From positions 122,556 through 186,555 of the IMG/VR virus record IMGVR_UViG_3300037042_006844: a stretch of 64,000 bases of DNA, one strand, 5' to 3'. Origin of the DNA: a virus. The notes beneath the pieces are model-generated. The model did no database searches and was not told the origin of the DNA. It saw only the letters and a list, made by a program, of their open reading frames with translations. Positions 20,372-62,554 of this stretch are shown here, one piece after another (the stretch's first letter is position 1; the number at the start of each line of letters is the position of its first letter). A program made the position numbers and the translations under genes.

Positions 20372-20377
20372 AGTTAA

Positions 20378-20433
20378 ATGGTCGGAATTCCTCCTCTTGG
20401 CTAAAGCCGAAGAGGTTTCCTTCCTCCAAAAAT
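20378..20433 (+). repeat. conserved 5' leader element, copy 1, with a TAAA-loop hairpin
   Basis: AATGGTCGGAATTCCTCC-CTCTTGGC-TAAA-GCCGAAGAGG-TTTCCTTCCTCCAAAAATATG. About 85% identical to 41614..41661, with compensatory changes in the stem. Confidence 0.6.
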
Positions 20434-21567
20434 ATGAAAACCTGCATTTACCCCGGAAGTTTTGACCCAGTTACATTCGGACATGTTGATATTATCAACC
20501 GTGCAGCCAGCACGTTTGACAAAGTTATTGTTGCGGTTGGGATCAACAGCAGCAAAAAATATACATTCAAAACTGAACAACGCATACAGTTTCTTAAAAA
20601 CAATATCAAGCAGAGTAATGTATGTGTAATGCCATTCGATGGATTGCTGGCGGATTTTGCATACGAAAACAATGCCAAGACCATTATCAAAGGTGTTCGC
20701 AACAACCAAGATTTTGATTATGAAAGATTGTTGCACGAAATCACCATCACACAGCAAGCTGGAATTGACACACATATTCTGGTGGCAGATCAAAAGTTGA
20801 GCCACATCAGCAGCACTGCCGTAAAAGAACTGTGCAAATTTCAAGGGTTAATTCATGAATATGTTCCCTATGATGTCAAGGAAGCATTGGAGTGGGTGCT
20901 GAATGGGCAATTTATTGTGGGAGTCACTGGAGAAATTGGCATGGGCAAAAGCTATGTCAGTTCAAAGATCGTCGAAAAAACGGATGGCTGGCTTGGATAT
21001 GTGCATCCAGTGACAAATGTGGATTTGGATAAAGTGGCGCACGAATTGTATGAATCGGATGCTCCAGCCCATTTGGAATTGCGAGAAAATATCATTGAAC
21101 GGTTTCAAATGAAAAGTGGCTTCAGCCGAAAAGAGTTGGGCGATGTTGTGTTCAATGACATCAATAAACTACAACAACTCAATACTTTGATTCGCACACC
21201 ACTACTCACATTGCTGCGCAAGAAAATCAGAGAGCACAAGGGTTTGATTTTGTTGAATGGAGCATTGCTGGTTGAAGGCAACTACTTGTCGCTTTGCAAC
21301 AACAATGTGGTGGTAGTAGAATCAACAGAGCAGCAACAATTGGAAAATCTGGAACGTCGTGGGTTGACCGAAAAACAAGTTGAACGTCGATGGGCAAGTC
21401 AACTGACCACAGATGGAAAAATCAGACAGATCAACAGAGAAATTGAAAAGCATGGTCATGGCAAGTGCATCAAATACCAAAATGTTTACGTTGATCCATA
21501 TCAGGACCATATGAACACGTTTTTGATCAATCCATTGTATAACATGATGAGCAATCTTGAGAAATAA
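20434..21567 (+). CDS. coaD: bifunctional phosphopantetheine adenylyltransferase (CoaD) and dephospho-CoA kinase (CoaE) fusion
   Basis: N-terminal domain aligns with E. coli PPAT throughout (IYPGSFDPVTFGHVDI, SKK…F…EQR, KGVRNNQDFDYE, ISSTAVKE). C-terminal domain has a P-loop (IVGVTGEIGMGKSYV) and dephospho-CoA kinase-like layout. Confidence 0.75.
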   Translation: MKTCIYPGSFDPVTFGHVDIINRAASTFDKVIVAVGINSSKKYTFKTEQRIQFLKNNIKQSNVCVMPFDGLLADFAYENNAKTIIKGVRNNQDFDYERLLHEITITQQAGIDTHILVADQKLSHISSTAVKELCKFQGLIHEYVPYDVKEALEWVLNGQFIVGVTGEIGMGKSYVSSKIVEKTDGWLGYVHPVTNVDLDKVAHELYESDAPAHLELRENIIERFQMKSGFSRKELGDVVFNDINKLQQLNTLIRTPLLTLLRKKIREHKGLILLNGALLVEGNYLSLCNNNVVVVESTEQQQLENLERRGLTEKQVERRWASQLTTDGKIRQINREIEKHGHGKCIKYQNVYVDPYQDHMNTFLINPLYNMMSNLEK

Positions 21568-22378: not shown

Positions 22379-22423
22379 CATTTCATAGTTCCATGCCATA
22401 ATTATATTCAAGGTCAACAACCC

Positions 22424-22795
22424 CTAGGCTAAAGCCATAGGGGCTTGAAAGACACCGAGCTTTCTCAGTGATTTACATTCATTTGGCGAATTGACTGTCG
22501 CCTGCCCATCAAGTATGTTTCCATACGAGACGGGAAGTTTGGAACGATTTCCTATGTTCCGTGCAGCATTTAAGTCTGCATCATACACAATCCCACTCTT
22601 CGCATAAAACCTACAACCTCTACGCACACCCTCTTTGATACCACTAAAACTATCAATTTGAGAAGTGTAAGCAGGGCTAACTAGAATAACATTTTTTCCA
22701 ATGTTTTCTGCCTTGTAAGTTAATATTCTGCGAAGTTCAAATAATGGAACTTGTGCTATATGAGCAGTAAATGGATTTCGCCTCCTGCAATTCAC
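22424..22795 (-). pseudogene. tnpB: truncated TnpB (C-terminal RuvC region only), same lineage as 24855..26051
   Basis: …VRRGCRFYAKSGIVYDADLNAARNIG parallels …VRKGCRYYGLDKVVLDADLNAANNI in the full-length copy. The N-terminal roughly 270 aa are absent. A TAAA-loop hairpin overlaps its 3' end (22421-22443). Confidence 0.55.
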
Positions 22796-24854: not shown

Positions 24855-26051
24855 TCAATTGACACACGACCCTAAAGGGTCGGTGCTTGCCAGAGAAGAA
24901 CCTCTGACGATTGGTTGATTGACAGCAACCTGTCCATCGAGTGCGGAGCACGAGATGGAGTGTTCTTTGTCATATCTAAAAGTGATATTGTTCGCAGCAT
25001 TTAGGTCTGCGTCCAATACGACTTTATCAAGTCCATAATACCTACATCCTTTACGGACTCCGTTATCAAGACCACGATGGTCTAATTGGGATGTCCAGTG
25101 CGGATTAACGATGACCACTTGTTTTCCAAGTGATGCTGCCTTGTAGGTCAATATGTTCCTGAGAAGGAAATATGGCATTTGTGAATTGCGATTATTAAAT
25201 CTTCGTCCTTTGAACTTGGATTTAATCTTGGTCAAATCCTCAATCACAATGGTATTTGCCTTTGTGGTGAGAAGATGATTTACAACATTGTGTATGTAGT
25301 TCTTTGAAAAATGGTGTTCACGTCTGCGGAGTTTGGTTTGCTTAACTCTGGTAGAATGTGATTTGTGAGATTGGAGTTTTCTCTTGTTCCAACGTATCTT
25401 ACGTTTGGTTCGGTTAAACTCATTGCCTTTGATGATAATGCCTTCACTGGTAGAAGCAAGTCGTTTGAGTCCCAAATCAACTCCAATACATTTTTTGTTG
25501 TCTTGGAATGTTGTGGTATCGTCAAATACAATAGAGAGGAACACTCTATCGTCTCTTACAAAAAGAGAAGGGTCTTTGAGTTTGTATTTTGAAAATAATT
25601 CGTTGACCTTATTATACTTGAGAAGTTTGGCAGTGATACGACCATTACAAGTTGTCAGTTTAATGGCGTCTTGACCAATCCAAGTATAGATGCGAGTGTC
25701 CAGTTGGATGTTTAGTCGGTTTGTCTCAACTGGTTCTGTGATTTTATGGCAATTGGAACGAAGAGATTTGTATTTTGCAACCACGTCTTGTTCTGCCTTA
25801 ATGACAAACTGACTTGGAAGCATTGGAAGTTGTTCTCGAACCATCTTATAACATCTTTGGTGAAGAGGCATAAGACCATTACAGGACTTCATTCCAAATC
25901 GGATTTTAGATATGATATTGAAAGCATCACGTTTCAACGATAGTGATTTGATGAGAGATTGTTTATCCTCATCATTTTCAAAAATCAGTTGAACATTGTA
26001 TGTTTTCATTATTACTGGATATACATATTGTGAAGAAACAGAAAACAACAA
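24855..26051 (-). CDS. tnpB: TnpB-like RNA-guided nuclease (compact lineage without a canonical CxxC zinc ribbon)
   Basis: RuvC-like motifs (IGVDLGLKRL, …IVIEDL…, DADLNAANNI). The likely start is the internal Met of MKTYNVQLIF. Confidence 0.75.
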   Translation of the reverse strand: MLFSVSSQYVYPVIMKTYNVQLIFENDEDKQSLIKSLSLKRDAFNIISKIRFGMKSCNGLMPLHQRCYKMVREQLPMLPSQFVIKAEQDVVAKYKSLRSNCHKITEPVETNRLNIQLDTRIYTWIGQDAIKLTTCNGRITAKLLKYNKVNELFSKYKLKDPSLFVRDDRVFLSIVFDDTTTFQDNKKCIGVDLGLKRLASTSEGIIIKGNEFNRTKRKIRWNKRKLQSHKSHSTRVKQTKLRRREHHFSKNYIHNVVNHLLTTKANTIVIEDLTKIKSKFKGRRFNNRNSQMPYFLLRNILTYKAASLGKQVVIVNPHWTSQLDHRGLDNGVRKGCRYYGLDKVVLDADLNAANNITFRYDKEHSISCSALDGQVAVNQPIVRGSSLASTDPLGSCVN

Positions 26052-26130
26052 ACTATTTTGAGAAAGTGAGATATTTTCGTTGCTCCTCCCCTACCCTAAA
26101 GGGATAGGGGTTTCCGCAACGAGTGAGAAT

Positions 26131-39874: not shown

Positions 39875-39908
39875 GAGGGGCAGCGAAAGCTGCCCCTCTT
39901 TTTTGTTG
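39875..39908 (+). terminator. rho-independent terminator
   Basis: AGAGGGGCAGC-GAAA-GCTGCCCCTCT followed by TTTTTTG. Confidence 0.6.
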
Positions 39909-39920
39909 AAAATTATTTGA

Positions 39921-39948
39921 GTTGACGTTTTGCCAATTGGCGGTATAG
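39921..39948 (+). promoter_or_regulatory. sigma70-like promoter (TTGACG-N16-TATAGT) for the NAMPT gene
   Basis: Followed by an approximately 200-nt GC-rich structured leader before the ATG at 40159. Confidence 0.45.
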
Positions 39949-40158
39949 TTATGTATGTAGCCGAGATGAGATTTATAAGTCGAAGCTGCGAAACAGCTGT
40001 TAACCCAACCCATCTCCCCAGAAGCCAACACCATTTCCATGGTTTCGGGTGGTATAGTTTCCGTCCGACCTCAGATGTCTCTGTAAGGGGCTGCATCTGG
40101 AGGTAGGGATCCGATCACCGACTCTGTTCAAATTCCAACAAAGAAAGACGTTTAAGAT

Positions 40159-41556
40159 ATGAATAAAAACATCTGTTTAACTACTGACAGCTACAAGCTA
40201 AACCATTGGAATCAATACCCTCGTAACACCGAGATTGTGTATAGTTATTTCGAGTGTCGCAAAGGAGCAACCTTCGCCGAAACCCCGTTCTTCGGGCTTC
40301 AATACATTATTAAAAGCCACCTTGAGGGCGCAGTCGTGACCAGGGAGAATATTGAGAAGGCAGCTAGGCTTTGCAAATTCCATTTTGGCGACGAGCGTTA
40401 CTTCAACCGTGAGGGCTGGGAATACATCCTCAATAATTGGGGAGGTAAACTTCCAGTCGTTATCAAGGCTGTTGAGGAGGGAACTGTGGTTCCGGTCAAC
40501 AACGTGTTGATGACCATTGAGAATGTGGGCGGTGCCATGACGGCTTGGCTCACCAATTTCCTTGAGACGATTTTGTCCCAAGTATGGTATCCCACAACCG
40601 TTGCAGCTTTGAGCCGTGAGGTCAAAAAGAATATCAAAGAATATCTTGATTTAACCAGTGAGGGCGGACTGCTCAATTTCGGACTGCATGATTTTGGGTT
40701 CCGGGGGGCATCGTCTTGGGAATCTGCTGGTATTGGTGGTGCGGCTCATCTAATCAACTTCCTTGGCACCGATACTTTGGTCGCGATGGAGGTCGCCATG
40801 AACTATTACAATGCAAACCTCGAAGGATTAGCATACAGTGTGGCAGCAACCGAGCACAGTGTGATGACTGCTTTGGGCAAGGACGGTGAGGAAACGGTCG
40901 TCGAGAATCTGCTCAATGAATATCCCACGGGTATTCTTTCTGTGGTCTCCGATAGCTACGACATCTACAATTTTGTTAACAACATCGTTGGACGCAAATT
41001 TAAGGATTGGATTCTTGAGCGTGATGGTGTGTTCGTGGTTAGACCAGATTCCATTACTCCGAGCCATCCAACTCCTGAGCAGGAAATGGTTTGGATTATG
41101 TGGAGTCTTTGGGACAATTTTGGTGGCATTATAAACAGCAAGGGATTTAATGTTATCAATCCCAAGGTTCGTGTTCTTTGGGGCGATGGAATCGATTTGG
41201 AAGGTATCAAAAAGATTCTGTGTGCTGTTGCCGATGCTGGATTTGCAACCGAAAATATCGCATGTTTCGGAATGGGTGGCGGACTCTTACAGAAAGTCAA
41301 TCGTGATACACAGCGTTGTGCATTCAAATCGTCTGCACAGTATCGCAACGGTCAGTGGTTTGATATTTTCAAGAGTCCCAAGGATATTTCCAAGGCTTCC
41401 AAAAAGGGCAAGCTCAAGCTCACCAAGATTGACGGCAAGTTCGTTACTGTTGGTGAAAACGATCCCGGTGAGGATTATTTGAAGGTTGTGTTTACGAATG
41501 GTGTGCTGGTCAAGGAAATTGACTTTGCAACCGTTCGCAAGAACGCTGCTCTATGA
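40159..41556 (+). CDS. nicotinamide phosphoribosyltransferase family protein (NAMPT/NadV; possibly the Namat of a NARP1 pathway)
   Basis: Full-length match to the NAMPT family: LTTDSYKLNHW, VYSYFECR, FGLQY, KAVEEGTVVP, HDFGFRGASS, GTDT, EHS, VVSDSYDIYN, RPDSI, GDGID, FGMGGGLLQKVNRDTQRCAFK and EIDFATVRKNAAL. Confidence 0.85.
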   Translation: MNKNICLTTDSYKLNHWNQYPRNTEIVYSYFECRKGATFAETPFFGLQYIIKSHLEGAVVTRENIEKAARLCKFHFGDERYFNREGWEYILNNWGGKLPVVIKAVEEGTVVPVNNVLMTIENVGGAMTAWLTNFLETILSQVWYPTTVAALSREVKKNIKEYLDLTSEGGLLNFGLHDFGFRGASSWESAGIGGAAHLINFLGTDTLVAMEVAMNYYNANLEGLAYSVAATEHSVMTALGKDGEETVVENLLNEYPTGILSVVSDSYDIYNFVNNIVGRKFKDWILERDGVFVVRPDSITPSHPTPEQEMVWIMWSLWDNFGGIINSKGFNVINPKVRVLWGDGIDLEGIKKILCAVADAGFATENIACFGMGGGLLQKVNRDTQRCAFKSSAQYRNGQWFDIFKSPKDISKASKKGKLKLTKIDGKFVTVGENDPGEDYLKVVFTNGVLVKEIDFATVRKNAAL

Positions 41557-41613
41557 ACTACCCACCCGCTAAAGCAGGCGGGTTTTCTGCTCCCACAAAG
41601 ATAAAATTGTGAA
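41551..41613. mobile_element. apparent tnpB-less miniature derivative of IS-2 (right-end hairpin fused to left-end sequence)
   Basis: 41551-41587 (CTATGAACTACCCACCCGCTAAAGCAGGCGGGTTTTC) matches 60849-60885 at the IS-2 tnpB 3' end in 35 of 37 positions. The next stretch TCTGCTCCCACAAAGATAAAATTGTG matches TCTGCTCCCTCAAAGATAAATATAGTG at 62133-62158, beyond the tnpB start. The NAMPT stop codon lies inside the element. Confidence 0.4.
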
Positions 41614-41661
41614 AATGGTCGGAATTCCTCCCCTTAGGGGTTTCCTTCCTCCAAAACTATG
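41614..41661 (+). repeat. conserved 5' leader element, copy 2
   Basis: AATGGTCGGAATTCCTCC-CCTTAGGGG-TTTCCTTCCTCCAAAACTATG. The stem differs from copy 1 but remains self-complementary. Confidence 0.55.
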
Positions 41662-41677
41662 AAATGGATTAATCCCC

Positions 41678-41705
41678 TTGACTTCTATAAAATCTGTGGT
41701 ATACT
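41678..41705 (+). promoter_or_regulatory. sigma70-like promoter (TTGACT-N16-TATACTTTAG)
   Basis: Near-identical -10 region and downstream sequence to the helicase promoter. ATG 7 nt downstream. Confidence 0.5.
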
Positions 41706-41711
41706 TTAGAT

Positions 41712-41846
41712 ATGAGTGAATATAAAATAAAAACTGTCGTTAATATAGAGTTGGAAAAGGATCATGTTACTGTTGTGGTGTGTGAAAAAGCAGGGTATTT
41801 AGTTCATTATTTCTCATTCGACAATTCGATGGTCATTACTTGGTGA
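41712..41846 (+). CDS. leaderless small ORF of 44 aa (MSEYKIKTVVNIELEKDHVTVVVCEKAGYLVHYFSFDNSMVITW), not in the ORF track
   Basis: ATG 7 nt after the -10 box. Stop TGA at 41844-46. Too short to appear in the supplied track. Confidence 0.3.
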   Translation: MSEYKIKTVVNIELEKDHVTVVVCEKAGYLVHYFSFDNSMVITW

Positions 41847-43657: not shown

Positions 43658-43732
43658 GGGGTCTAAGCTTTAATGGTGAAGCAAGCGGCTTTTAACCGCT
43701 AGAAGACGGATCGTTACCGTCAGGCCCTACCA
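43658..43732 (+). tRNA. tRNA-Lys (anticodon UUU)
   Basis: Manual fold. Acceptor stem GGGGTCT/AGGCCCT with G1-U72 and U5-G68 wobble pairs. D arm GCTT-TAATGGTG-AAGC. Anticodon stem-loop AGCGG-CTTTTAA-CCGCT. T arm GACGG-ATCGTTA-CCGTC. ACCA encoded. Confidence 0.65.
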
Positions 43733-43748
43733 AATTTACAGTTAAAAT

Positions 43749-43824
43749 GGGGTTATCGTCTAATGGCTAGGACGGGAGACTTTCAATCTCCAAATCGTGG
43801 GTTCAATTCCCCGTAGCCCTACCA
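43749..43824 (+). tRNA. tRNA-Glu (anticodon UUC), with a T stem that pairs poorly
   Basis: Acceptor stem GGGGTTA/TAGCCCT (with wobbles). D arm GTCT…GGAC. Anticodon stem-loop GGAGA-CTTTCAA-TCTCC. T loop TTCAATT. ACCA encoded. Only 3 bp of the T stem pair in my fold. Confidence 0.45.
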
Positions 43825-44154
43825 TTTTCACTGTCAGGTCAATAATGACAGACCGTTAGCAATAAGCGGTGTCAATGTGCAAAAAAATTCAAGTGGTATA
43901 GCACATCTGACGTTATAGATTCCACTTGATGGTGGAGGGGCGCGGAATAGCCCCCTAGACAAACAGATTGACGGATTGATATAATCGAAGGATATTATAT
44001 CTAATGCAACAGATAAATCCGATATAATGGTTTGTCGAGAGTTTGACATAACTCTACAACAACATATGTCTGGTTGCGGGGATGAGCCAATGGTGTCTCG
44101 GTTATCCGATTGGATCGAGATTCAATAACCCTACAATCGGACCAATTTTATAAT

Positions 44155-44231
44155 TGCGGAATAGAGTTCTGGTGAACTCCGGTGTCTCATAAGCACTCGC
44201 TAGAAAAGTTCGATTCTTTTTTCCGCTACCA
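44155..44231 (+). tRNA. tRNA with anticodon CAU (Met or Ile2 type); mismatch at positions 1:72
   Basis: D arm GAGT-TCTGGTGA-ACTC. Anticodon stem-loop GGTGT-CTCATAA-GCACT, with G-U pairs. T arm AAAAG-TTCGATT-CTTTT. Acceptor 3' strand TTCCGCT plus ACCA. Confidence 0.5.
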
Positions 44232-44236
44232 ATTTC

Positions 44237-44330
44237 GGTTCTGTAGTTTAACTGGTAAAACCCCATACTTATAATATGGTAATCGCTAGATGTGCGTGAC
44301 TTCTCGGTTCGAATCCGAGCAGAACCACCA
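44237..44330 (+). tRNA. class II tRNA with a long variable arm and an apparent UAU anticodon
   Basis: Acceptor stem GGTTCTG/CAGAACC plus A and CCA. D arm GTTT-AACTGGTA-AAAC. Anticodon stem-loop CCATA-CTTATAA-TATGG. Variable arm of about 23 nt with a CGC/GCG stem. T arm CTCGG-TTCGAAT-CCGAG. Confidence 0.55.
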
Positions 44331-44394
44331 AATTTATGACGAACGTGTCATAAAAAAACAAAGTTACATTGAATTAATACTAATATAATAGAAT

Positions 44395-44721
44395 ATGAAA
44401 AAGATACTTCTAACAGTTGCAACCCTCTCTCTTCTTTTGACCGCTAGTGCGGTTGATACCAAGGAACTCTACGATTCACAATGCTCCAAGTGTCATGGAA
44501 CAAATGGCAATGGTGTGACCAAGATGGGTCAAAAGCTCAATGCGAAGGATTGGACCGATGTCAAGATTCAAGCCGCAATGACCGAGACCAACATGGTCAA
44601 GGCAATTAAGGTGGGCATTAAAGATGCCGAGGACAAGACTCGCATGAAGGCATATTCAGATATGACTGATGCCGATGTGACGAATTTGGTTACGTATATC
44701 AAAACCTTCAAAAAGCAATAA
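44395..44721 (+). CDS. small secreted c-type cytochrome
   Basis: Signal peptide and a single CSKCH haem-binding motif (CxxCH). Confidence 0.65.
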   Translation: MKKILLTVATLSLLLTASAVDTKELYDSQCSKCHGTNGNGVTKMGQKLNAKDWTDVKIQAAMTETNMVKAIKVGIKDAEDKTRMKAYSDMTDADVTNLVTYIKTFKKQ

Positions 44722-44739
44722 CATCGTATATAACATCGT

Positions 44740-45069
44740 ATGAAGAAATCATTGATGCTCGGGGTTTTGATTCTCAGCGGAATGTTGTGTCAAGCACAAA
44801 ACGCTGGAACCAACGAATTGTATAACAGCAAGTGCAGCAAGTGCCATGCAAAAGATGGCTCGGGCAACACACTGATGGGCAAAAAGTATAGTGCGAAAAA
44901 CTATACAGATGCAGCCGTCCAAAACAAGCTTACTGATGAAGCTTTTGATAAGTCCCTCAAAGAGGGTTACACCGATGCCGAAGGCAAGAAAGTAATGCAG
45001 GCTTTTCCAGAGCTTACGGCACTGGAGCGCAAGGAACTCATCAAAACGATGCGGTCCTTCAAGAAATAA
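44740..45069 (+). CDS. small secreted c-type cytochrome, a paralogue
   Basis: Signal peptide and LYNSKCSKCHAKDG. Paralogous to 44395..44721. Confidence 0.65.
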   Translation: MKKSLMLGVLILSGMLCQAQNAGTNELYNSKCSKCHAKDGSGNTLMGKKYSAKNYTDAAVQNKLTDEAFDKSLKEGYTDAEGKKVMQAFPELTALERKELIKTMRSFKK

Positions 45070-45088
45070 GATTGACATATCAATTTAT

Positions 45089-45161
45089 GCGGAATTAGTG
45101 TCATGAGGAGCACGGCTATCGACCAGATAGCAAGGTTGGTGCAAGTCCAAATTCCGCTCCA
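45089..45161 (+). tRNA. degenerate tRNA-like element with G at position 33, an ACC anticodon loop and a 4-bp T stem; possibly a pseudo-tRNA
   Basis: Acceptor stem GCGGAAT/ATTCCGC plus U and CCA. D arm GTGT…GCAC. Anticodon stem-loop GCTAT-CGACCAG-ATAGC. T arm TTGG-TGCAAGT-CCAA. Confidence 0.3.
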
Positions 45162-45169
45162 CTTTTTCA

Positions 45170-45245
45170 GGGCTCTTAGCTTAATTGGTTAAGCAGCAAA
45201 CTCATAATTTGTTGAGTGGGGGTTCGAGTCCCTCAGGGCCCACCA
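45170..45245 (+). tRNA. tRNA-Met (anticodon CAU)
   Basis: Acceptor stem GGGCTCT/AGGGCCC (with U-G). D arm GCTT-AATTGGTTA-AAGC. Anticodon stem-loop GCAAA-CTCATAA-TTTGT. T arm GGGGG-TTCGAGT-CCCTC. Discriminator A plus CCA. Confidence 0.7.
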
Positions 45246-45248
45246 TTT

Positions 45249-47681
45249 CTATCCTCTTCCAACAGTTGTTATTGGGTATGACGTAATTCTCGCCCAGTCT
45301 ATATCGAATTGTCGAACAGTAACAATGGTCGGCCAAATTTGGATACCAAATTGATATCCCGTGGTTGCTGGCATGATATATGAACTGGTTCCGTATTGAA
45401 TGCCATCGATCAAATAATGCATTTTGTTTGTAACGTTGTTTCTGACCAATTGGAATTTATGCCAGCCATCATCACCAGCCGATCCACTTCCGTATTTCAC
45501 AGACGTTGGGAATGATTGATTGATGCTGGCACTTCGCGCAGCATATCTCCAAGAACCAGTGATGGACCCCACCGATCCAGTTCTTTCAAAATAAAATCCT
45601 CTGACTACCCCTGTTGCCAATATATCACTAAACAATCCGACTCGCATTATATGATCTGGGGCTGTTTGAACATTTCTCATAATGGTTTCAAATGATCTAA
45701 AATCGCCCCATGCAATATGCATCGGTTGGGTTGGTGCCGCTATAAGCCCTGGTGTAAACGCACTCGGTGTAGTTGTGGAAGTGCTGCTTTGCCTTCTCAA
45801 CACACCAGGATGCCCCAGCGTTGAACTTAGCGTGGGAAGCATTGTTCCGTTATATATATTCCAACCATCATAGACTTGGTCTGCCGACTGGTGCGCCGAT
45901 AAAAATTCCCAAGATATATCTACAAGTCTGCTGGTATCTCTATACCCCAACAAATAGCTAGCTGACGTGGCATTTGTGGCGGTTGTTGTGCTTGTTGCAC
46001 TGGCAGCTTTCACTGCCCAACTGCTTGTGATTGGATACGTAGAAGCAGAAAGCAATCCTTTTTGATAATACGATCCGTGCTGACCATCGAGTTTATCAGA
46101 ATCACTGGAATAGCTGCTGAAGCTTGCGGACGTTACATGTTGCGCCCAACTGCTTGTTATTGGATACGTTGAGGCTGTGTGCAGCGTTGTTCCACCTCCT
46201 GGTGCCCAACTTGCACTACGGGCATTTTCAGCCCAGCTTGAGGTAAACGGATATGTCGAACCAGTATGCAGTGTCGTGCCGCCTCCACTTGATGGTGCCC
46301 AACTTGCACTACGTGCTTGATTTGCATAGCTGGCAGTTCCAGCAAATAATGATGCAGTAATTACTGAACAACTTATATGCCCCGCAACGTCCAGTGTATT
46401 TACTGGGTTGCTGACTCCTATACCAACTTTTCCGTTTGGTTGTGGTTGCCCAGTAGTCCCAGGAGTATTTGCGAATATAACATTGGCAATGTTTGTTTGA
46501 TCTGGCGCAGTGTTTATGGCTCCTCGACCAATTGCAATGCTGTTACCATACCCTCCTGTCGATGTATAATCTCCGATCAAAATTGAAGAGGAATTTCCCG
46601 CCGAGTTATTAACCGTGTCAGTCTGACCCGCTGCATAACCTATGAAAATGCTGTTATTTGCTGTAGTAGCCCCCGATCCAGCCCACGTTCCGATGAAATT
46701 GCTATTCAAAGCTCCAGTCGCCGAATCCCCTGCCGAATATCCAATGAAATTGCTGTTGTATGCATTTGAAGCATTAGCACCAGCAAAGTATCCAATGAAA
46801 TTGCTTTCATATGCGTTTATTGCATTAACACCCGCTCTGTCACCGATGAAATTACTACGTGCGGCATGATCAGCACTAGAGCCAGCAAAGTATCCAATGA
46901 AATTACTGTCGCCCGCATCGGTTGAGAATTTTCCCGCTTTATATCCAATGAAATTGCTGGCTCTGACACTACCAGATGCGCCATATCCCGTTTGATATCC
47001 TATAAAATTGCACTCCATGGCATCGGGGGCATTATATCCAGAACCACTTCCAATAAAATTGCTTTTGACGGGAGCACTTCCTGTATTGCTGACGATGTGC
47101 CCAATTAATATCAGATTTCCAGCAATACTGGCTCCCGTATTAATTTGAAGACCGTTGTTTGGAGAAATCGATGCGGATGCACTTCCACTTATGATTTTGG
47201 ATGGATCGCCGCCGCCAGGTGCCCAACTTGCACTGTGGGCATGGCTTGAACTATGAGCATGGCTTGCACTGTGGGCATGGCTTGCACTACGAGCATAACT
47301 AGATGATGTCGCATTATCGGCTTTCAAAGCATGGCTTGCACTGTGTGCGTGGCTTGAGCTTCTTGCCCAGCTTGCACTGTGTGCATGGCTTGAGCTTCTA
47401 GCATAGCTCGCCGACACAGCGTTTCTTGCCCAACTGCTTGTGATCGGGTATGATGAACCAGTGCGAATTCCTGGTAGATTTACCGAATTGCCGAGTCCGT
47501 CATAATAGCTAGCCGATGCTATTTGCACCAACCGTCCATATGTGGTTGATATTTGCTTTCCTAGTAAAGAATAGTTCATATTTAGAGTCAGTGTGTATAT
47601 ATAATTATCAATAATATCTTCCGTCCACAAACGAATTTCCTGCGGTGCTACCTGGGAAATAACTTGCCCCAGCACCACCAC
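45249..47681 (-). CDS. tail fibre or receptor-binding protein, paralogue 1, repeat-rich
   Basis: 810 aa. NSNFIGY.AG repeats and ARSASWAPGGG…STYPITSSWA repeats. Block SILIGDYTSTGGYGNSIAIG shared with the upstream paralogue. Confidence 0.65.
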   Translation of the reverse strand: MVVLGQVISQVAPQEIRLWTEDIIDNYIYTLTLNMNYSLLGKQISTTYGRLVQIASASYYDGLGNSVNLPGIRTGSSYPITSSWARNAVSASYARSSSHAHSASWARSSSHAHSASHALKADNATSSSYARSASHAHSASHAHSSSHAHSASWAPGGGDPSKIISGSASASISPNNGLQINTGASIAGNLILIGHIVSNTGSAPVKSNFIGSGSGYNAPDAMECNFIGYQTGYGASGSVRASNFIGYKAGKFSTDAGDSNFIGYFAGSSADHAARSNFIGDRAGVNAINAYESNFIGYFAGANASNAYNSNFIGYSAGDSATGALNSNFIGTWAGSGATTANNSIFIGYAAGQTDTVNNSAGNSSSILIGDYTSTGGYGNSIAIGRGAINTAPDQTNIANVIFANTPGTTGQPQPNGKVGIGVSNPVNTLDVAGHISCSVITASLFAGTASYANQARSASWAPSSGGGTTLHTGSTYPFTSSWAENARSASWAPGGGTTLHTASTYPITSSWAQHVTSASFSSYSSDSDKLDGQHGSYYQKGLLSASTYPITSSWAVKAASATSTTTATNATSASYLLGYRDTSRLVDISWEFLSAHQSADQVYDGWNIYNGTMLPTLSSTLGHPGVLRRQSSTSTTTPSAFTPGLIAAPTQPMHIAWGDFRSFETIMRNVQTAPDHIMRVGLFSDILATGVVRGFYFERTGSVGSITGSWRYAARSASINQSFPTSVKYGSGSAGDDGWHKFQLVRNNVTNKMHYLIDGIQYGTSSYIMPATTGYQFGIQIWPTIVTVRQFDIDWARITSYPITTVGRG
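47215..47440. repeat. tandem repeats of about 15 nt (GCATGGCTTGCACTG-like) inside the tail-fibre gene, encoding SAS(H/W)A(H/R) repeats
   Basis: Direct inspection of 47215-47440 shows at least 8 imperfect copies. Confidence 0.55.
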
Positions 47682-50172
47682 TGTTTATAATTGCAAACGA
47701 GTTGGCATTGTATCGTTGTCCAGATGCGGTTCCAACCCATGTAATTCCTGGAGCATACACAACGCCAAAAGTATCGGCTGCGCAAAACCATGCTGTGAAC
47801 GCAAGAGACCCAACTAAAGTAACTGTCCAACCACCATCAGCACTGACTGTGGCACTGTTTGAAGCATACCAGTGTCCCAACCCTCCAGCAACAATACTAT
47901 AACTTCCCCCAAGTCTCACATTTGCTCCGAACAGTGATGCTATATGCAAACTTCCAGCGGGAACCGTTCCAAACCGAATGCCCGCCCCAGTCGCAACTGT
48001 TGTATATGGTCCTGATGCATAAATACAATGTTGTGTGGTGGATCTTAATTCCATATTTTGGAACACGAATTTTCCGAACACGTTTGCCGCATATATCGAA
48101 TTTTTGCCAGCAGCAGGAGAACCAGAGAGAATGACATTTGCGGGAGTTCCAGAATTTCCATTAAATATTACTCGCCCCGATCCAACAACGTTTGACAGAT
48201 TTACAGTCTGCGCATATGTTCCATCTGCCAATTGAACCGTTACGTCGTATATTCCAGTATCAATTGACGAAACTACATCCATTGCTTTCTGCAAAGTTGC
48301 AAATGGAGCACCGACTGTCAATCCATTGTTTGAATCGTTGCCAGTTGTGCTAACATAATATGTTCTTTCCGCCAGCAACACTGTGCGAGTCGTTGCCGAT
48401 GTTGGTGCTGGAGCATATGATGCTGATACGGCATTTCTAGCCCAACTGCTTGTTATTGGATATGTGCTGCCAGTGCGAAGTGTTGATCCTCCACCCCCAC
48501 CACTGCTTGGTGCCCAACTTGCACTACGAGCTTGTTTTGCATAACTTGCTGTGCCAGCAAACAATGATGCGGACACAACCGTCGCCGATATGTTTCCGGC
48601 CACATCCAATGCATTAACTGGGTTGCTGACTCCTATACCAACTCTACCGTTGGATTGAACAGAGCCAGTTGTTGTGGTGCCAGTATAAATACCCGTTGCG
48701 AACAACACATTTCCAATGCTCACTTGTTCTGGTAGAGTATTTTGAACTCCCTGACCAATCGCAATGCTGTTGCTGTTACCACCAGTTGACGTAAAATCAC
48801 CAATCAGTATTGAAGATTTTCCTATCACTGAGTTATCAACGATATCAGCGTAACCTGCACTATAACCTATGAAAATACTGTTGTTGGCTTTGGGTGCGTT
48901 AACACCACACCAACGACCAATGAAATTGCTGTATGATGCGCTTACTGAGTTCTGTCCAGCAGCAAATCCTATGAAATTGCTGTTATTGGCTTCGGTTGCT
49001 TCAGAGCCAGCACTGACACCTATAAAATTGCTTTCATATGCATTTACAGCCCAGTTGCCCGAACCCATTCCAATAAAATTGCTGCTGTGGGCATTGGTGG
49101 CTTGTGATCCAGCACCCGCTCCAAAAAAATTACTGTTTGTGGCACTGACGGCGTTGATGCCAGCACTATTTCCCATGAAGTTGGAAAACGAGGCTTCAGC
49201 AGCATTGATACCAGCCCAAATTCCAATAAAATTGCTGTTTTCAGCATTTGTTGCTGCTTCGCCAGCTTGTGTTCCAATGAAATTGCTGTTGTTGGCGTTT
49301 GCTGCTTGATTTCCAGCACCGGCACCAACAAAATTGCTATATACCGCATATACTGCTTGATTTCCAGCACCATCTCCAACAAAATTGCTATGGTGGGCAT
49401 ATGATGCGCTGAGTCCAGCTTCATAGCCCAACAAATTGGTATTGGCTGGAGGAGTTTTTGTGTTGACGATATAACCAGTTATCAATACATCCCCTTCAAA
49501 ACTTGCAGATGTGTTGACTTGCAAGCCCCCAGCTGGCGAAATCGAGGCTGATACGCTGCCATTGATAATTCTGGTTGGTTCACCGCTACCACCCGGTGCC
49601 CAGCTTGCACTTCGAGCGTGGTTTGCATAACTGGATGATGATGCGTTTGAACTGATATTGATCAGCATTTTTCCAGCCGTTGTGTGTTGGTATAAACAAT
49701 ATCCAACCACAGTTGGCACTGCGTTTCCATCTGGGGGAGTCAATGAGTATCTACCAGGAGTTGTTCCGCTCAAATACAATAATGACCCAGCCGAATAGCC
49801 CGATGTATTGACATCATTGACTTGACCTTGGGCTGTAACGTATCCTTTGCTTGCACTGAGAATATTTTGAGCAGCTACACCAGCAACGTTGTATTTCTTC
49901 GTAACACCATCACTGATTGCTTTGAAACCGATTGGGTATGTTAGCAAAGACCCCGACAGTGTTATAGCATCACCCGCAGAAATATTTTCGCCAGCATAAA
50001 TTTGCCCAAGGGTCTCTTGACCAATTTTCAACGTCAATCCAGATTGATCGTTGTATACGGCGTATGTGTGGTTATCTTTGTCCCAAAACAGCAACCCTTC
50101 TTGCCATGCAGGTTTTGTTGCATTGGTAGCCGCTTGGATATACGAATTCTGATCTATTTGAAAAATGTGCAT
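47608..50172 (-). CDS. tail fibre or tailspike with a right-handed beta-helix (pectate-lyase-like, putative depolymerase) domain, paralogue 2
   Basis: 854 aa. YVSTTGNDSNNGLTVGAPFATLQKAM is the hallmark N-terminal cap of beta-helix tailspikes. Shares the NFIG repeats and SILIGDFTSTGGNSNSIAIG with paralogue 1. Confidence 0.65.
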   Translation of the reverse strand: MHIFQIDQNSYIQAATNATKPAWQEGLLFWDKDNHTYAVYNDQSGLTLKIGQETLGQIYAGENISAGDAITLSGSLLTYPIGFKAISDGVTKKYNVAGVAAQNILSASKGYVTAQGQVNDVNTSGYSAGSLLYLSGTTPGRYSLTPPDGNAVPTVVGYCLYQHTTAGKMLINISSNASSSSYANHARSASWAPGGSGEPTRIINGSVSASISPAGGLQVNTSASFEGDVLITGYIVNTKTPPANTNLLGYEAGLSASYAHHSNFVGDGAGNQAVYAVYSNFVGAGAGNQAANANNSNFIGTQAGEAATNAENSNFIGIWAGINAAEASFSNFMGNSAGINAVSATNSNFFGAGAGSQATNAHSSNFIGMGSGNWAVNAYESNFIGVSAGSEATEANNSNFIGFAAGQNSVSASYSNFIGRWCGVNAPKANNSIFIGYSAGYADIVDNSVIGKSSILIGDFTSTGGNSNSIAIGQGVQNTLPEQVSIGNVLFATGIYTGTTTTGSVQSNGRVGIGVSNPVNALDVAGNISATVVSASLFAGTASYAKQARSASWAPSSGGGGGSTLRTGSTYPITSSWARNAVSASYAPAPTSATTRTVLLAERTYYVSTTGNDSNNGLTVGAPFATLQKAMDVVSSIDTGIYDVTVQLADGTYAQTVNLSNVVGSGRVIFNGNSGTPANVILSGSPAAGKNSIYAANVFGKFVFQNMELRSTTQHCIYASGPYTTVATGAGIRFGTVPAGSLHIASLFGANVRLGGSYSIVAGGLGHWYASNSATVSADGGWTVTLVGSLAFTAWFCAADTFGVVYAPGITWVGTASGQRYNANSFAIINSGGAGASYFPGSTAGNSFVDGRYY

Positions 50173-60659: not shown

Positions 60660-60848
60660 AATTGCCCAGCACCTTCCACATAATGGTTGCGAAACTCAAT
60701 GTGCAATGCTTTTGGAACACTCGTTTTTTTATTGCATAGAATGCAACGTTCAAACTGAGAGTCTTTTTCAGACTCGACGGGAACATTGCCAGCAATGATG
60801 GCTTTCTGTGGAACATTATTATTCATGTATTTGACCTATAACTATTTG

Positions 60849-62160
60849 CTATGAACTACCCACCTGCTAAAGCAGGTGGGTTTCCACCGCAATAGTTATG
60901 AGTTTCTATCGGGTAGTTCCTACCCGTATTAAACGTTGTCTTTGGAAATGAGAAGTCCAAGATATTCTTGGCAGCATTCACATCTCTATCGTGTTTCTCA
61001 TTACAATCTGGGCAAGTCCATTCTCTATCATTTAATGTAAGAGAATGATTAACATATCCACAATGAGAACACGTCTTACTGGATGGTTCAAATCTACCTA
61101 TTTTTAGGAAGTTCTTACCATACCAGTCGCTTTTATATTGGAGCATATTTACAAATTTTCCCCAAGCATAATCTCCTATGAGTTTATTAGTTGGTGAATA
61201 GTTGTTCTTCTGCATCCCCCGAATGGTTAAATCCTCAATACAGATATTACCAATTTGGTTATCATTGGTTAGTTTGTATGAGAGTTTATCCAAGAAATCT
61301 TTGCGTTGTCTTGTTATTTTAGAATGGAGTTTGGTTATCTGCTCTTGCTTGGAGATATGAGCAGTAGAACCTTTAGTGAGTTGCTCCAAATCCTGTTGGT
61401 GTTTAGTAAGTTTATCAGCAGATTGTTTCAATACCTTCGGGTTCTCAATCTTTGTTCCATCATTCAGAGTAAGAAATGTTTTTACTCCAAAATCTATTCC
61501 TATTGCTTTATCCTTTTTTGGTGTTGGTTTCTTTGATAGTTCTTTTTCAACCTCTACAAGAATGGAAACATAGTATCGTTTATCTCTGTCTTGGGATACG
61601 ATTGCTTGTTTAATCGTTCCTTCTGCTTGTCGGTCAAAGATACATTTAATGCCTCCACGAAACTTTGGAATGACTAATCGCTTTCCATCATAGTTCAACT
61701 TAATGTTGTTATTAGTCATTGGGACAACGAACGATTTACGAGCATACTTCTTCGACTTAAACTTTGGAAATCCAGCATTGGAACGAAAGAAGGAAGTATA
61801 TGCTCTATCCAAGTTGAGGATGGATTGCTGTAGCGATTGAGAACCTATCTCACTCAACCATTCATTTGTCTTTTTCAACTTTGGAAGTTCAGTTGCCATA
61901 TCCTGCCAGTTCAATGTTTTCTTGGTTTCTTTGTAATGCTTAATCTTTACTTCAAGGAAATGGTTGTATATCCATCGGCAGTGTCCAAAATGCTTGGACA
62001 AAAGAACCTCTTGTTCCTTGGTAGGATATATTCTGTATTTGTAAGCAACGTTATACATTCTACAACATACATATCATTCACTTTCTAAAAACGATTAATT
62101 ATTTTTCAATGGGTCGCATTCATCCCATATGGGGTTTCTGCTCCCTCAAAGATAAATATA
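60849..62160 (-). mobile_element. IS200/IS605-family element carrying only tnpB (IS-2)
   Basis: TnpB 60856..62058. Perfect TAAA-loop hairpin CCCACCTGC-TAAA-GCAGGTGGG at 60859-80, which encodes the TnpB C-terminus. Hairpin CCCATATGGGG plus TTTCTGCTCCC beyond the start (62108-62160). Boundaries are approximate. Confidence 0.45.
60856..62058 (-). CDS. tnpB: TnpB (OrfB_IS605 type, with a zinc ribbon)
   Basis: YKYRIYPTKEQ N-terminus, DFGVKTF (RuvC I), CIEDL (RuvC II), CSHCG…CPDCN zinc finger and DRDVNAAKNI (RuvC III). Confidence 0.8.
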   Translation of the reverse strand: MYNVAYKYRIYPTKEQEVLLSKHFGHCRWIYNHFLEVKIKHYKETKKTLNWQDMATELPKLKKTNEWLSEIGSQSLQQSILNLDRAYTSFFRSNAGFPKFKSKKYARKSFVVPMTNNNIKLNYDGKRLVIPKFRGGIKCIFDRQAEGTIKQAIVSQDRDKRYYVSILVEVEKELSKKPTPKKDKAIGIDFGVKTFLTLNDGTKIENPKVLKQSADKLTKHQQDLEQLTKGSTAHISKQEQITKLHSKITRQRKDFLDKLSYKLTNDNQIGNICIEDLTIRGMQKNNYSPTNKLIGDYAWGKFVNMLQYKSDWYGKNFLKIGRFEPSSKTCSHCGYVNHSLTLNDREWTCPDCNEKHDRDVNAAKNILDFSFPKTTFNTGRNYPIETHNYCGGNPPALAGG

Positions 62161-62164
62161 GTGG

Positions 62165-62554
62165 TTACTTCCAAACTACTTGCAACACCACTATTAGAAC
62201 ACTAAGTCCAATCAATGTCAAGGTTTTTGGAGTAAGCTGCTCGTTAAAATAAAACGTGGTTAGTATAGTAAACATTAACATTCCAATACTGAACGTAAAT
62301 ATCCTATTAGGCCAGATTTTGCCGTCGAAATGCTCGCTGATCAGTTTAACGCTGTAAATTGATAATAATGTATTGGGCATCGACAATAACAACATTGGAT
62401 ACTGGTATCGTTTGAATGCTTCGTGCAAAAACTGCCCATATAGTTGGTGCCAGCCAACTACATATACGATTACCAATAAACATAGTCCGTAAAACAGTTT
62501 CATCGGTTGGAGTTCATTGTTACAATGAACCCGGGGGTATTGAGTCCAACCCAA
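62165..62554 (-). CDS. hypothetical membrane protein
   Basis: 129-aa ORF with about 4 TM helices. Confidence 0.45.
   Translation of the reverse strand: MGWTQYPRVHCNNELQPMKLFYGLCLLVIVYVVGWHQLYGQFLHEAFKRYQYPMLLLSMPNTLLSIYSVKLISEHFDGKIWPNRIFTFSIGMLMFTILTTFYFNEQLTPKTLTLIGLSVLIVVLQVVWK

Follow-up and report, generated by a model that had tools for sequence, protein, structure and literature searches.

A probable 48-nt terminal-only derivative of a tnpB-only IS200/IS605-family element at the end of a phage NAMPT gene

Introduction

In Haloquadratum walsbyi, the IS1341-type insertion sequence (IS) ISHwa23 (1500 bp) and the palindrome-associated transposable element (PATE) HqIRS46 collapse to 52-bp terminal-only PATEs by repeat-mediated deletion, and the mobility of these remnants is suspected but unproven (Dyall-Smith et al. 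2011, PMC3119063). Here we describe a closely similar element in virus DNA. A stretch of 64,000 nucleotides (nt) from IMG/VR record IMGVR_UViG_3300037042_006844 (positions 122,556 to 186,555; hereafter "the window") carries, at the end of a gene of the NAMPT family, a non-coding 48-nt miniature at 41553-41600 that is very probably a terminal-only derivative of a tnpB-only (IS1341-like) IS of the IS200/IS605 family with an ISDra2-like TnpB. A full-length relative, IS-2, lies in the same window (Table 1). Elements of this kind are already known from archaea; here they are met again, at many sites, in phage DNA from the environment.

The likeness to the Haloquadratum terminal-only PATEs is close. 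In both cases the element is about 50 bp long and non-coding, holds one near-terminal palindrome between two IS termini, has neither inverted terminal repeats nor a target duplication, would derive from deletion between directly repeated end palindromes, and is present or absent between close genomes. The differences lie in the host, a (probably large) bacteriophage from environmental metagenomes as against a haloarchaeal chromosome, in the parent, which here has a bacterial-type, ISDra2-like TnpB, in the length (48 nt vs. 52 bp) and in the stop codon that is rebuilt at the phage site.

Further points of comparison come from ISGst2 of Geobacillus stearothermophilus, in the sections of Meers et al. 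(2023, PMC10055086) drawn on here. There, the transposon-adjacent motif (TAM) of ISGst2 TnpB was determined experimentally as TTTAT; the right-end motif of IS605 elements nearly copies the TAM, and ISGst2 has, beside the TAM TTTAT, a near-identical transposon-encoded motif (TEM); and excision involves two ends, each with a guide 5′ of the hairpin that is matched to its own cleavage motif. Relative to what those sections describe, the present family is similar in that TTTAT abuts the left end as target and TAM, the right-boundary motif departs from the TAM by one or two bases, gene-less derivatives exist, and tnpB-only copies would be mobilised by a TnpA encoded elsewhere. The PATE-like miniatures are described in those sections only as lacking protein genes and as having left and right ends similar to those of the IS, with no mention of a single-hairpin form, whereas ours has a single fused hairpin, a comparison made by description only. 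The more usual, two-part form is represented by a 271-nt PATE-like element of Halanaerobium (PMC7290912).

Like the repetitive extragenic palindromes (REPs) served by REP-associated tyrosine transposases (RAYTs), the miniature is a single short imperfect palindrome related to IS200/IS605 end hairpins and a possible substrate of a Y1 HUH enzyme, cut on both sides. REPs are chromosomal repeats of high copy number that have a conserved 5′ GTAG and lie next to a RAYT (TnpA-REP) gene, whereas the miniature occurs once per 64 kb, carries GTAG 3′ of its stem, has no RAYT or TnpA in the window and is unmatched in 185,579 bacterial and archaeal species genomes. ISDra2 has a tnpA gene and the target TTGAT, unlike IS-2, which lacks tnpA and has the target TTTAT. 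The two TnpB proteins are alignable (ISDra2 TnpB structures 8exa and 8h1j), and the guide RNA of IS-2 is expected, as in ISDra2, to overlap the 3′ end of tnpB and the right end.

Results

A 48-nt insertion completes the NAMPT gene

The NAMPT-family protein shares its C-terminus, ...RKNAAL, with its relatives. In the window, the element supplies the TGA stop of the gene (41554-41556), as an initial annotation made from the letters of this stretch had proposed, and it also completes the final Leu codon. Among 13 loci of NAMPT relatives in IMG/VR, 12 end in ...AAL-stop with no trace of the element, and the other (L025) diverges at its 3′ end. Near-isogenic contigs were found by exact-protein look-ups with genes neighbouring NAMPT. 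The phage contig ERZ27313431 k141_609505 is 99.4% identical to the window over NAMPT and lacks the miniature; this near-isogenic phage reads ...AAGAACGCTGCTCTATAAAATT..., which is the window minus 41553-41600. The window itself reads ...AAGAACGCTGCTCT[48 nt]ATAAAATT..., excising the 48 nt restores ...GCTGCTCTATAAAATT, and the empty site in L090 is CTCTATAAAATT. Independently, L048 has TAAAATTGTG in common with the native flank of the miniature. The suggestion in the initial annotation that an element had inserted at the NAMPT 3′ end is thus borne out by an empty site in 12 related loci and in the 99.4%-identical phage. A MAFFT alignment of the NAMPT 3′ regions misplaced the insertion, and the empty site was instead read directly from the sequences.

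On the element strand the insertion lies 3′ of TTTAT, and target duplication is absent. The element end TTCAT and the target TTTAT are one base apart, so that CT/ATAAA becomes CT/ATGAA (the slash marks the junction) and the NAMPT codons CTA-TAA become CTA-TGA with the same protein end. The insertion was silent because the ATAAA target held the TAA stop and TTCAT (ATGAA) differs from it at one position. Presence and absence of the miniature is polymorphic between close relatives, and the empty site in a phage 99.4% identical to the window points to a recent event. The same junction of NAMPT and miniature was found nowhere else in IMG/VR; exact-protein look-ups returned no match for NAMPT, the cREC protein or a 44-aa open reading frame (ORF) downstream; and BLASTN of the miniature and IS-2 loci against 50,697 GenBank phages gave no match, so the comparative evidence is drawn from IMG/VR, metagenomes and assembly look-ups.

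The region downstream of the gene also differs between the two phages. Window 41606-41782 stands in place of L090 2035-2923, and four small genes downstream of NAMPT (77, 63, 86 and 73 aa) are missing from the window. The replacing segment holds a leader cassette (described below), a promoter (TTGACT-16-TATACT, 41678-41705) and the 44-aa ORF, which is chimeric, its 3′ end matching the 73-aa gene of the near-isogenic phage. The left boundary of the replacement is 3 nt past the target motif of the miniature. An ancestral terminator-like hairpin that follows NAMPT in relatives is missing from the window.

Two IS ends are joined around one hairpin

Read on the minus strand, which is its sense strand, the miniature is CTTTGTGGGAGCAGAAAA-CCCGCCTGC-TTTA-GCGGGTGGG-TAGTTCAT, 48 nt in all. 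Its two minus-strand G.T wobbles become two A.C mismatches on the plus strand, where the right-end tail reads ATGAACTA and gives the third base of the last Leu codon together with the TGA stop. Positions 41551-41585 are identical to 60849-60883, at the right end of IS-2, at 33 of 35 nt, with both differences in the hairpin, and positions 41585-41605 match 62136-62156, at the left end, at 20 of 21. Neither part has a second match with ≤3 mismatches in the window, where 0 are expected by chance. The sequence GGGTTT at 41580-41585 aligns with both ends of IS-2 because a homologous hairpin is present at each.

These matches uphold the similarity reported in the initial annotation while changing its details. 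The identity of 35/37 given for 41551-41587 against 60849-60885 is 34/37 over the same 37 nt; the left-end match, placed at 62133-62158, lies a few bases off; and the GTG at 41610-41613, counted as part of that match, is flank, since the similarity ends at 41605. The element proposed at 41551-41613 exists within narrower limits, 41553-41600, the adjoining ATAAA at 41601-41605 being the target motif. A similarity restricted to the hairpin is excluded: the matches extend beyond it over the 18-nt left and 8-nt right IS termini.

The miniature retains one hairpin and lacks all that separates the two hairpins of a full-length element. The proposal that the right and left ends of an IS are fused with tnpB deleted therefore holds, in the form of an 18-nt left terminus, a hairpin and an 8-nt right tail. 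That single hairpin is a fusion of the left-end and right-end hairpins, and not a pair of retained ends as in a typical miniature inverted-repeat transposable element (MITE) or PATE. Descent from the resident IS-2 copy, also proposed, fares less well. The miniature belongs to the same family, but it differs from the IS-2 ends at several positions, its left-end part being identical to that of another copy, L001, and, to judge from these differences, it does not descend directly from the resident copy. It is too short for a protein, and its hairpin falls inside the right-end type of the family. At gathering thresholds, Rfam identifies only four tRNAs in the window and no family at the element.

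Table 1. Coordinates of the miniature, its target and its full-length relative in the 64,000-nt window
Feature	Position	Strand	Remarks
NAMPT-family gene, 465 aa	40159..41556	(+)	Pfam NAMPT_N and NAPRTase
48-nt miniature (terminal-only, PATE-like)	41553..41600	(-)	limits from near-isogenic empty site in L090
Right-end tail TAGTTCAT, 8 nt	41553..41560	(-)	last 5 nt, TTCAT, are the transposon-encoded motif
Single hairpin, 9-bp stem and TTTA loop	41561..41582	(-)	fully paired on minus strand, 2 G.T wobbles
Left-end terminal 18 nt CTTTGTGGGAGCAGAAAA	41583..41600	(-)	identical to L001 left end; 17/18 vs. IS-2 left end
Target / transposon-adjacent motif TTTAT (plus strand: ATAAA)	41601..41605	(-)	native flank, holds original NAMPT TAA stop
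IS-2, full-length tnpB-only IS200/IS605 element, 1301 bp	60851..62151	(-)	limits from independent copies; empty site in L095
IS-2 tnpB ORF	60856-62058	(-)	complete TnpB
IS-2 right-end hairpin CCCACCTGC-TTTA-GCAGGTGGG	60859..60880	(-)	inside tnpB 3′ end
IS-2 left-end hairpin, truncated to CCCCATATGGG	62124..62134	(-)	~12 nt of tip missing vs. L001 and other left ends
IS-2 TAM TTTAT	62152-62156		precedes left end

Independent copies define the ends of IS-2

The TnpB of IS-2 has the Pfam domains HTH_OrfB_IS605 (PF12323), OrfB_IS605 (PF01385) and Cas12f1-like_TNB (PF07282), scores 327 bits against the NCBIfam model guided_TnpB NF040570 (cutoff 100) and aligns with ISDra2 TnpB (PDB 8exa) over residues 3-367 (E 2.6e-66). 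The TAG that ends tnpB is part of the right-end tail TAGTTCAT, and translation of the gene agrees with the initial annotation that the hairpin encodes the C-terminal residues GGNPPALAGG.

A protein-guided search of IMG/VR recovered three independent IS copies with TnpB proteins 87-94% identical to that of IS-2. By BLASTN, the similarity of these copies (L001/L011, L002 and L003) to the IS-2 region is limited to window 62158-60848, with unrelated flanks, and their alignment places the ends of the IS at CTTTG... and ...TTCAT. In the sense of tnpB, the left end reads TTTAT / CTTTG(A/T)GGGAGCAGAAAA-CCCnnnnnn-TTTA-nnnnnnGGG-ATGAATGCGACCCA... and the right end ...GGAAA-CCCACCTGC-TTTA-GCGGGTGGG-TAGTTCAT /, followed by divergence. 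Because independent copies lose similarity exactly at these points, the stretches common to the miniature and IS-2 are ends of the IS and not its flanks.

IS-2 also has an empty allele, for which window 60835-60850 and 62152-62165 were compared with L095 3940-3990. The near-isogenic phage contig with the empty NAMPT site is empty here as well (L095) and reads ...CCACTATATTTAT-TCCAACTTCACAACAAACATATTTAT-AACAAATAGTTATAGG..., with a preceding TTTAT, where the window has ...CCACTATATTTAT-[IS-2]-AGCAAATAGTTATAGG...; IS-2, too, is inserted 3′ of TTTAT with no target duplication. Beside it, 26 nt between two ATATTTAT repeats are missing from the window relative to the sister contig. The predicted guide of IS-2, the flank after TTCAT, is AGCAAATAGTTATAGG and has one mismatch to the sister allele TTTAT-AACAAATAGTTATAGG, so the TnpB of IS-2 could in principle target the empty site of the sister phage (homing). 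IS-2 itself may have ceased to be a TnpA substrate, the tip of its left-end stem being lost by comparison with the 9-bp stem and TTTA loop.

A second, divergent TnpB gene, "IS-1" (24858-26051, minus strand), has weak matches to Pfam OrfB_IS605/TNB, scores 112 bits with guided_TnpB and is without the end motifs of IS-2. A hairpin at 26088-26110 was considered as the left end of IS-1 and rejected, as it belongs to the leader of an RNA-ligase gene.

The miniature belongs to a family of insertions

A search for the miniature architecture with no target motif specified found three more miniatures, and scanning metagenomes for the left-end motif gave 39 loci. After de-duplication, the family comprises 13 distinct 48-nt miniatures (including that of the window), ~25 distinct full left ends and, besides these, one or two remnants. 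The general layout, in the sense of tnpB, is TTTAT / CTTTGNGGGAGCAGAAAA-hairpin-ATGAATGCGACCC... at the left end and ...GGAAA-hairpin-TAGTTCAT / at the right end. The hairpins of the two ends are homologous, stand in direct orientation and are aligned across >30 copies; no inverted repeat is formed by the termini CTTTG... and ...TTCAT. Each left end is preceded by TTTAT, also where the search had not specified this motif.

The full copies with enough sequence are all tnpB-only and measure 1.30-1.39 kb. In them the right-end hairpin is coding and specifies the C-terminus of TnpB, which is why even quite different clades end in ...GNP(P/L)ALAGG. An autonomous relative, L037, combines the same left-end terminus with a divergent Y1 tnpA, a tnpB and a matching right-end hairpin; its tnpA lies between the left-end terminus and tnpB, and the encoded TnpA scores 115 bits with NF033573. 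Two pattern scans of the 185,579 species genomes found neither the miniature nor the left-end motif, and, as sampled, all members of the family come from viral or metagenomic contigs.

A general preference of the family for stop codons was considered and rejected, since only 2 of 27 junctions close an ORF of >80 codons. Some loci have unusual arrangements: in L007 and L009 (about 3700 and 7786), the left end directly follows a tRNA 3′ CCA and is itself followed by an HNH-like fragment in place of tnpB; L008 4415-4441 is a 26-nt left-end-only remnant; and in L063 (1265-1430) a miniature lies ~100 nt from the right end of another, oppositely oriented copy.

The hairpin is maintained on the tnpB-sense strand

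Among 17 distinct hairpins, 96% of cells are paired, with compensatory double changes in six of the nine pairs, a level reached by 0 of 500 shuffles. The 18 tolerated non-Watson-Crick pairs are all G.T on the tnpB-sense strand and none is on the opposite strand, where they are A.C mismatches. The hairpin is thus a selected structure on the tnpB-sense strand, and it fits a top-strand DNA hairpin bound by TnpA, the 3′ stem of a TnpB guide RNA, or both.

RNA folding of the miniature gave -21.1 kcal/mol (z -3.3) for the sense (minus) strand, vs. -12.3 kcal/mol (z -0.8), with two A.C mismatches and no better than shuffles, for the NAMPT (plus) strand. A pattern scan lists the plus-strand stem and T-run as terminator-like. 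The conservation on the tnpB-sense strand and the weak fold on the NAMPT strand speak against evolution of the hairpin as a NAMPT terminator. Nor is the miniature a complete omega RNA scaffold: it keeps just the last 30 nt (hairpin and TAGTTCAT).

Miniatures arise by deletion between end hairpins

The miniature would be the remainder after recombination or slippage between the directly repeated end hairpins deletes all that lies between them. Insertion 3′ of TTTAT without duplication is what would be expected of single-strand "peel-and-paste" by a Y1 TnpA. Left-end hairpins mostly have the arms CCCATCTCC and GGGGATGGG, or CCCATCTGC and GCGGATGGG, and right-end hairpins the arms CCCAC(C/T)TGC and GCGGGTGGG. 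Among the miniatures, the hairpin is of the right-end type in seven and, with one transition, in that of the window; it is of the left-end type in two and chimeric in three. The chimeras (L012, L049 and L056) join a left-end-type 5′ arm (CCCATCTG-) to a right-end-type 3′ arm (-GCGGGTGGG), creating a T.G wobble, and are what an L058-like parent would be expected to yield by a crossover in its 12-nt identity CTGCTTTAGCGG. Hairpins of differing type, and the chimeras, indicate that miniatures arose several times via deletion between end hairpins; wherever in the hairpin homology the crossover falls, the product is 48 nt long.

For the window copy, we lean slightly towards a full-length insertion that came first and then collapsed in place, and give its arrival already as a 48-mer a little less than an even chance. 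Collapse in place fits a deletion-prone lineage, in which IS-2 has lost its left-end hairpin tip and 26 nt of flank. Several observations weigh against our reading of the miniature and its history. There is no TnpA gene in the 64-kb window; the differences between the miniature and the resident IS-2 ends imply that the parent, too, is absent from the window; no contig has a full-length copy at the NAMPT site; a larger replacement has its boundary just 3 nt from the insertion site; and three unrelated sites (L015, L041 and L060) have the same 48-mer, which is more economical if miniatures move. A candidate TnpA remnant upstream of NAMPT (39900-40007, minus strand) was rejected as a chance match, with E 0.09 for one TnpA query and no signal with the TnpAs of the family itself.

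The strongest competing explanation holds that the 48-mer is itself mobile, a Y1 TnpA acting in trans cutting after TTTAT and after TTCAT around one hairpin, and that the NAMPT site was reached by the miniature as such. We regard this as a serious possibility, though one somewhat short of even. The same 48-nt architecture stands at 13 distinct sites, ~1/3 of the distinct insertions of the family; besides the three identical copies at unrelated sites, two more pairs are nearly identical; the empty site in the 99.4%-identical phage implies a recent event; no site is seen full in one contig and as a miniature in another; and Dyall-Smith et al. (PMC3119063) raised the same possibility for 52-bp PATEs. 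Set against this, the miniatures are not one lineage, their right-end, left-end and chimeric hairpins requiring several independent deletions, and the deletion-proneness of this DNA is visible in the IS-2 hairpin tip and in the 26 nt lost between ATATTTAT repeats. Moreover, IS605 excision, as set out in the sections of PMC10055086 drawn on here, requires both ends with matched guides, whereas the miniature has a left-end-type guide, CAGAAAA, only. Active transposition of the 48-nt single-hairpin element, as a unit spreading among large environmental phages, we consider rather unlikely.

Less room is left for co-option of the remnant, be it to terminate the NAMPT transcript or stabilise its 3′ end, or to serve as a truncated guide-RNA locus (hairpin, TAGTTCAT and antisense NAMPT "guide") for a TnpB in trans. 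Such a role would suit the terminator-like match on the plus strand, the loss from the window of the terminator-like hairpin found after NAMPT in relatives, and the position of the right-end tail and hairpin next to potential "guide" sequence; but the plus-strand fold is weak, ~30 nt are kept of a scaffold that normally takes up >100 nt of the tnpB 3′ end, and insertion at ORF ends is no trend of the family. We judge co-option improbable.

A native phage terminator or regulatory hairpin that resembles IS-2 through a generic motif is far less probable still. Although the plus-strand stem and T-run are terminator-like and other phage hairpins in the leader cassette have the same 4-nt loop, the similarity reaches 18 nt and 8 nt past the hairpin into true IS termini, the sequence is missing at the site in the near-isogenic phage and in 12 relatives, and the NAMPT-strand stem contains two A.C mismatches (z -0.8 vs. 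-3.3 on the other strand). Finally, the view of 41551-41613 as an uninterrupted paralogue of the IS-2 target, the matches being IS-2 flanks, could draw on the GGGTTT joint, found in both IS-2 stretches as one would expect of a target duplication or microhomology, and on the tnpB ORF continuing through the common hairpin, yet its probability is negligible, as independent IS copies with unrelated flanks have these stretches as their own ends and the true empty site of IS-2 in L095 has none of them.

Other features of the window

A conserved promoter-proximal 5′ leader cassette occurs at window 41613-41664, directly after the miniature, and at 20376-20440, about 26080-26130 and 22421-22443. In plus-strand sense it consists of AATGGTCGGAATTCCTCC, a hairpin with a UAAA loop and covarying stem, GGTTTCCTTCCTCCAAA, 3-5 nt and ATG, and it is often preceded by TTGACA-17-TAgGAT. 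The cassette stands before a CoaD/CoaE fusion gene, before the RNA-ligase gene and, among IMG/VR contigs, in at least 18 further contexts; after the copy that follows the miniature there is only a 16-codon ORF. The genes of the window are without Shine-Dalgarno sequences. The segment 41613-41664 was considered as a second miniature IS and rejected, its motif being the 5′ leader that lies 3-5 nt before the ATG of many genes.

Further downstream, four tRNA genes are clustered at 43658-45242, after a PRPP-synthetase gene. The presence of this cluster alongside NAMPT, PRPP synthetase, RNA and DNA ligases, Thg1 and SpoU points to a large phage genome. On the minus strand, 45249-50172 holds two adjacent large ORFs (810 and 854 aa) made of 51-nt (17-aa) periodic repeats. 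Long paralogous blocks recur in the two ORFs at a distance of 2.2 kb, a build like that of fibre-like or repeat proteins.

Discussion

Exact empty alleles show how, in a phage genome, an IS200/IS605 element decays until a 48-nt scar with a single hairpin is left. They also show why such an insertion can be phenotypically silent: TTCAT mimics TTTAT, and TAA is changed to TGA in frame. The element is now most likely inert, as tnpB is gone and about 30 nt are all that is left of the guide-RNA scaffold, and it adds at most a weak hairpin and a U-tract to the NAMPT 3′ end. For annotation, the case is a warning that short "terminator-like" hairpins at phage gene ends can be remnants of IS.

If, against our expectation, the 48-mer proved to be an actively transposing unit, no smaller mobile DNA would be known, and IS200/IS605 PATEs and REP elements would be linked by a living intermediate. 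Silent landing on stop codons would then be possible since the end motif mimics the target, and such elements may mark TnpB-linked recombination sites. More generally, the ~40 independent insertions, full-length and miniature, in uncultured phages, with a defined target, defined ends and an associated TnpA, make this family a test set for the question, raised for haloarchaea in 2011, of whether one-hairpin miniatures can be mobilised.

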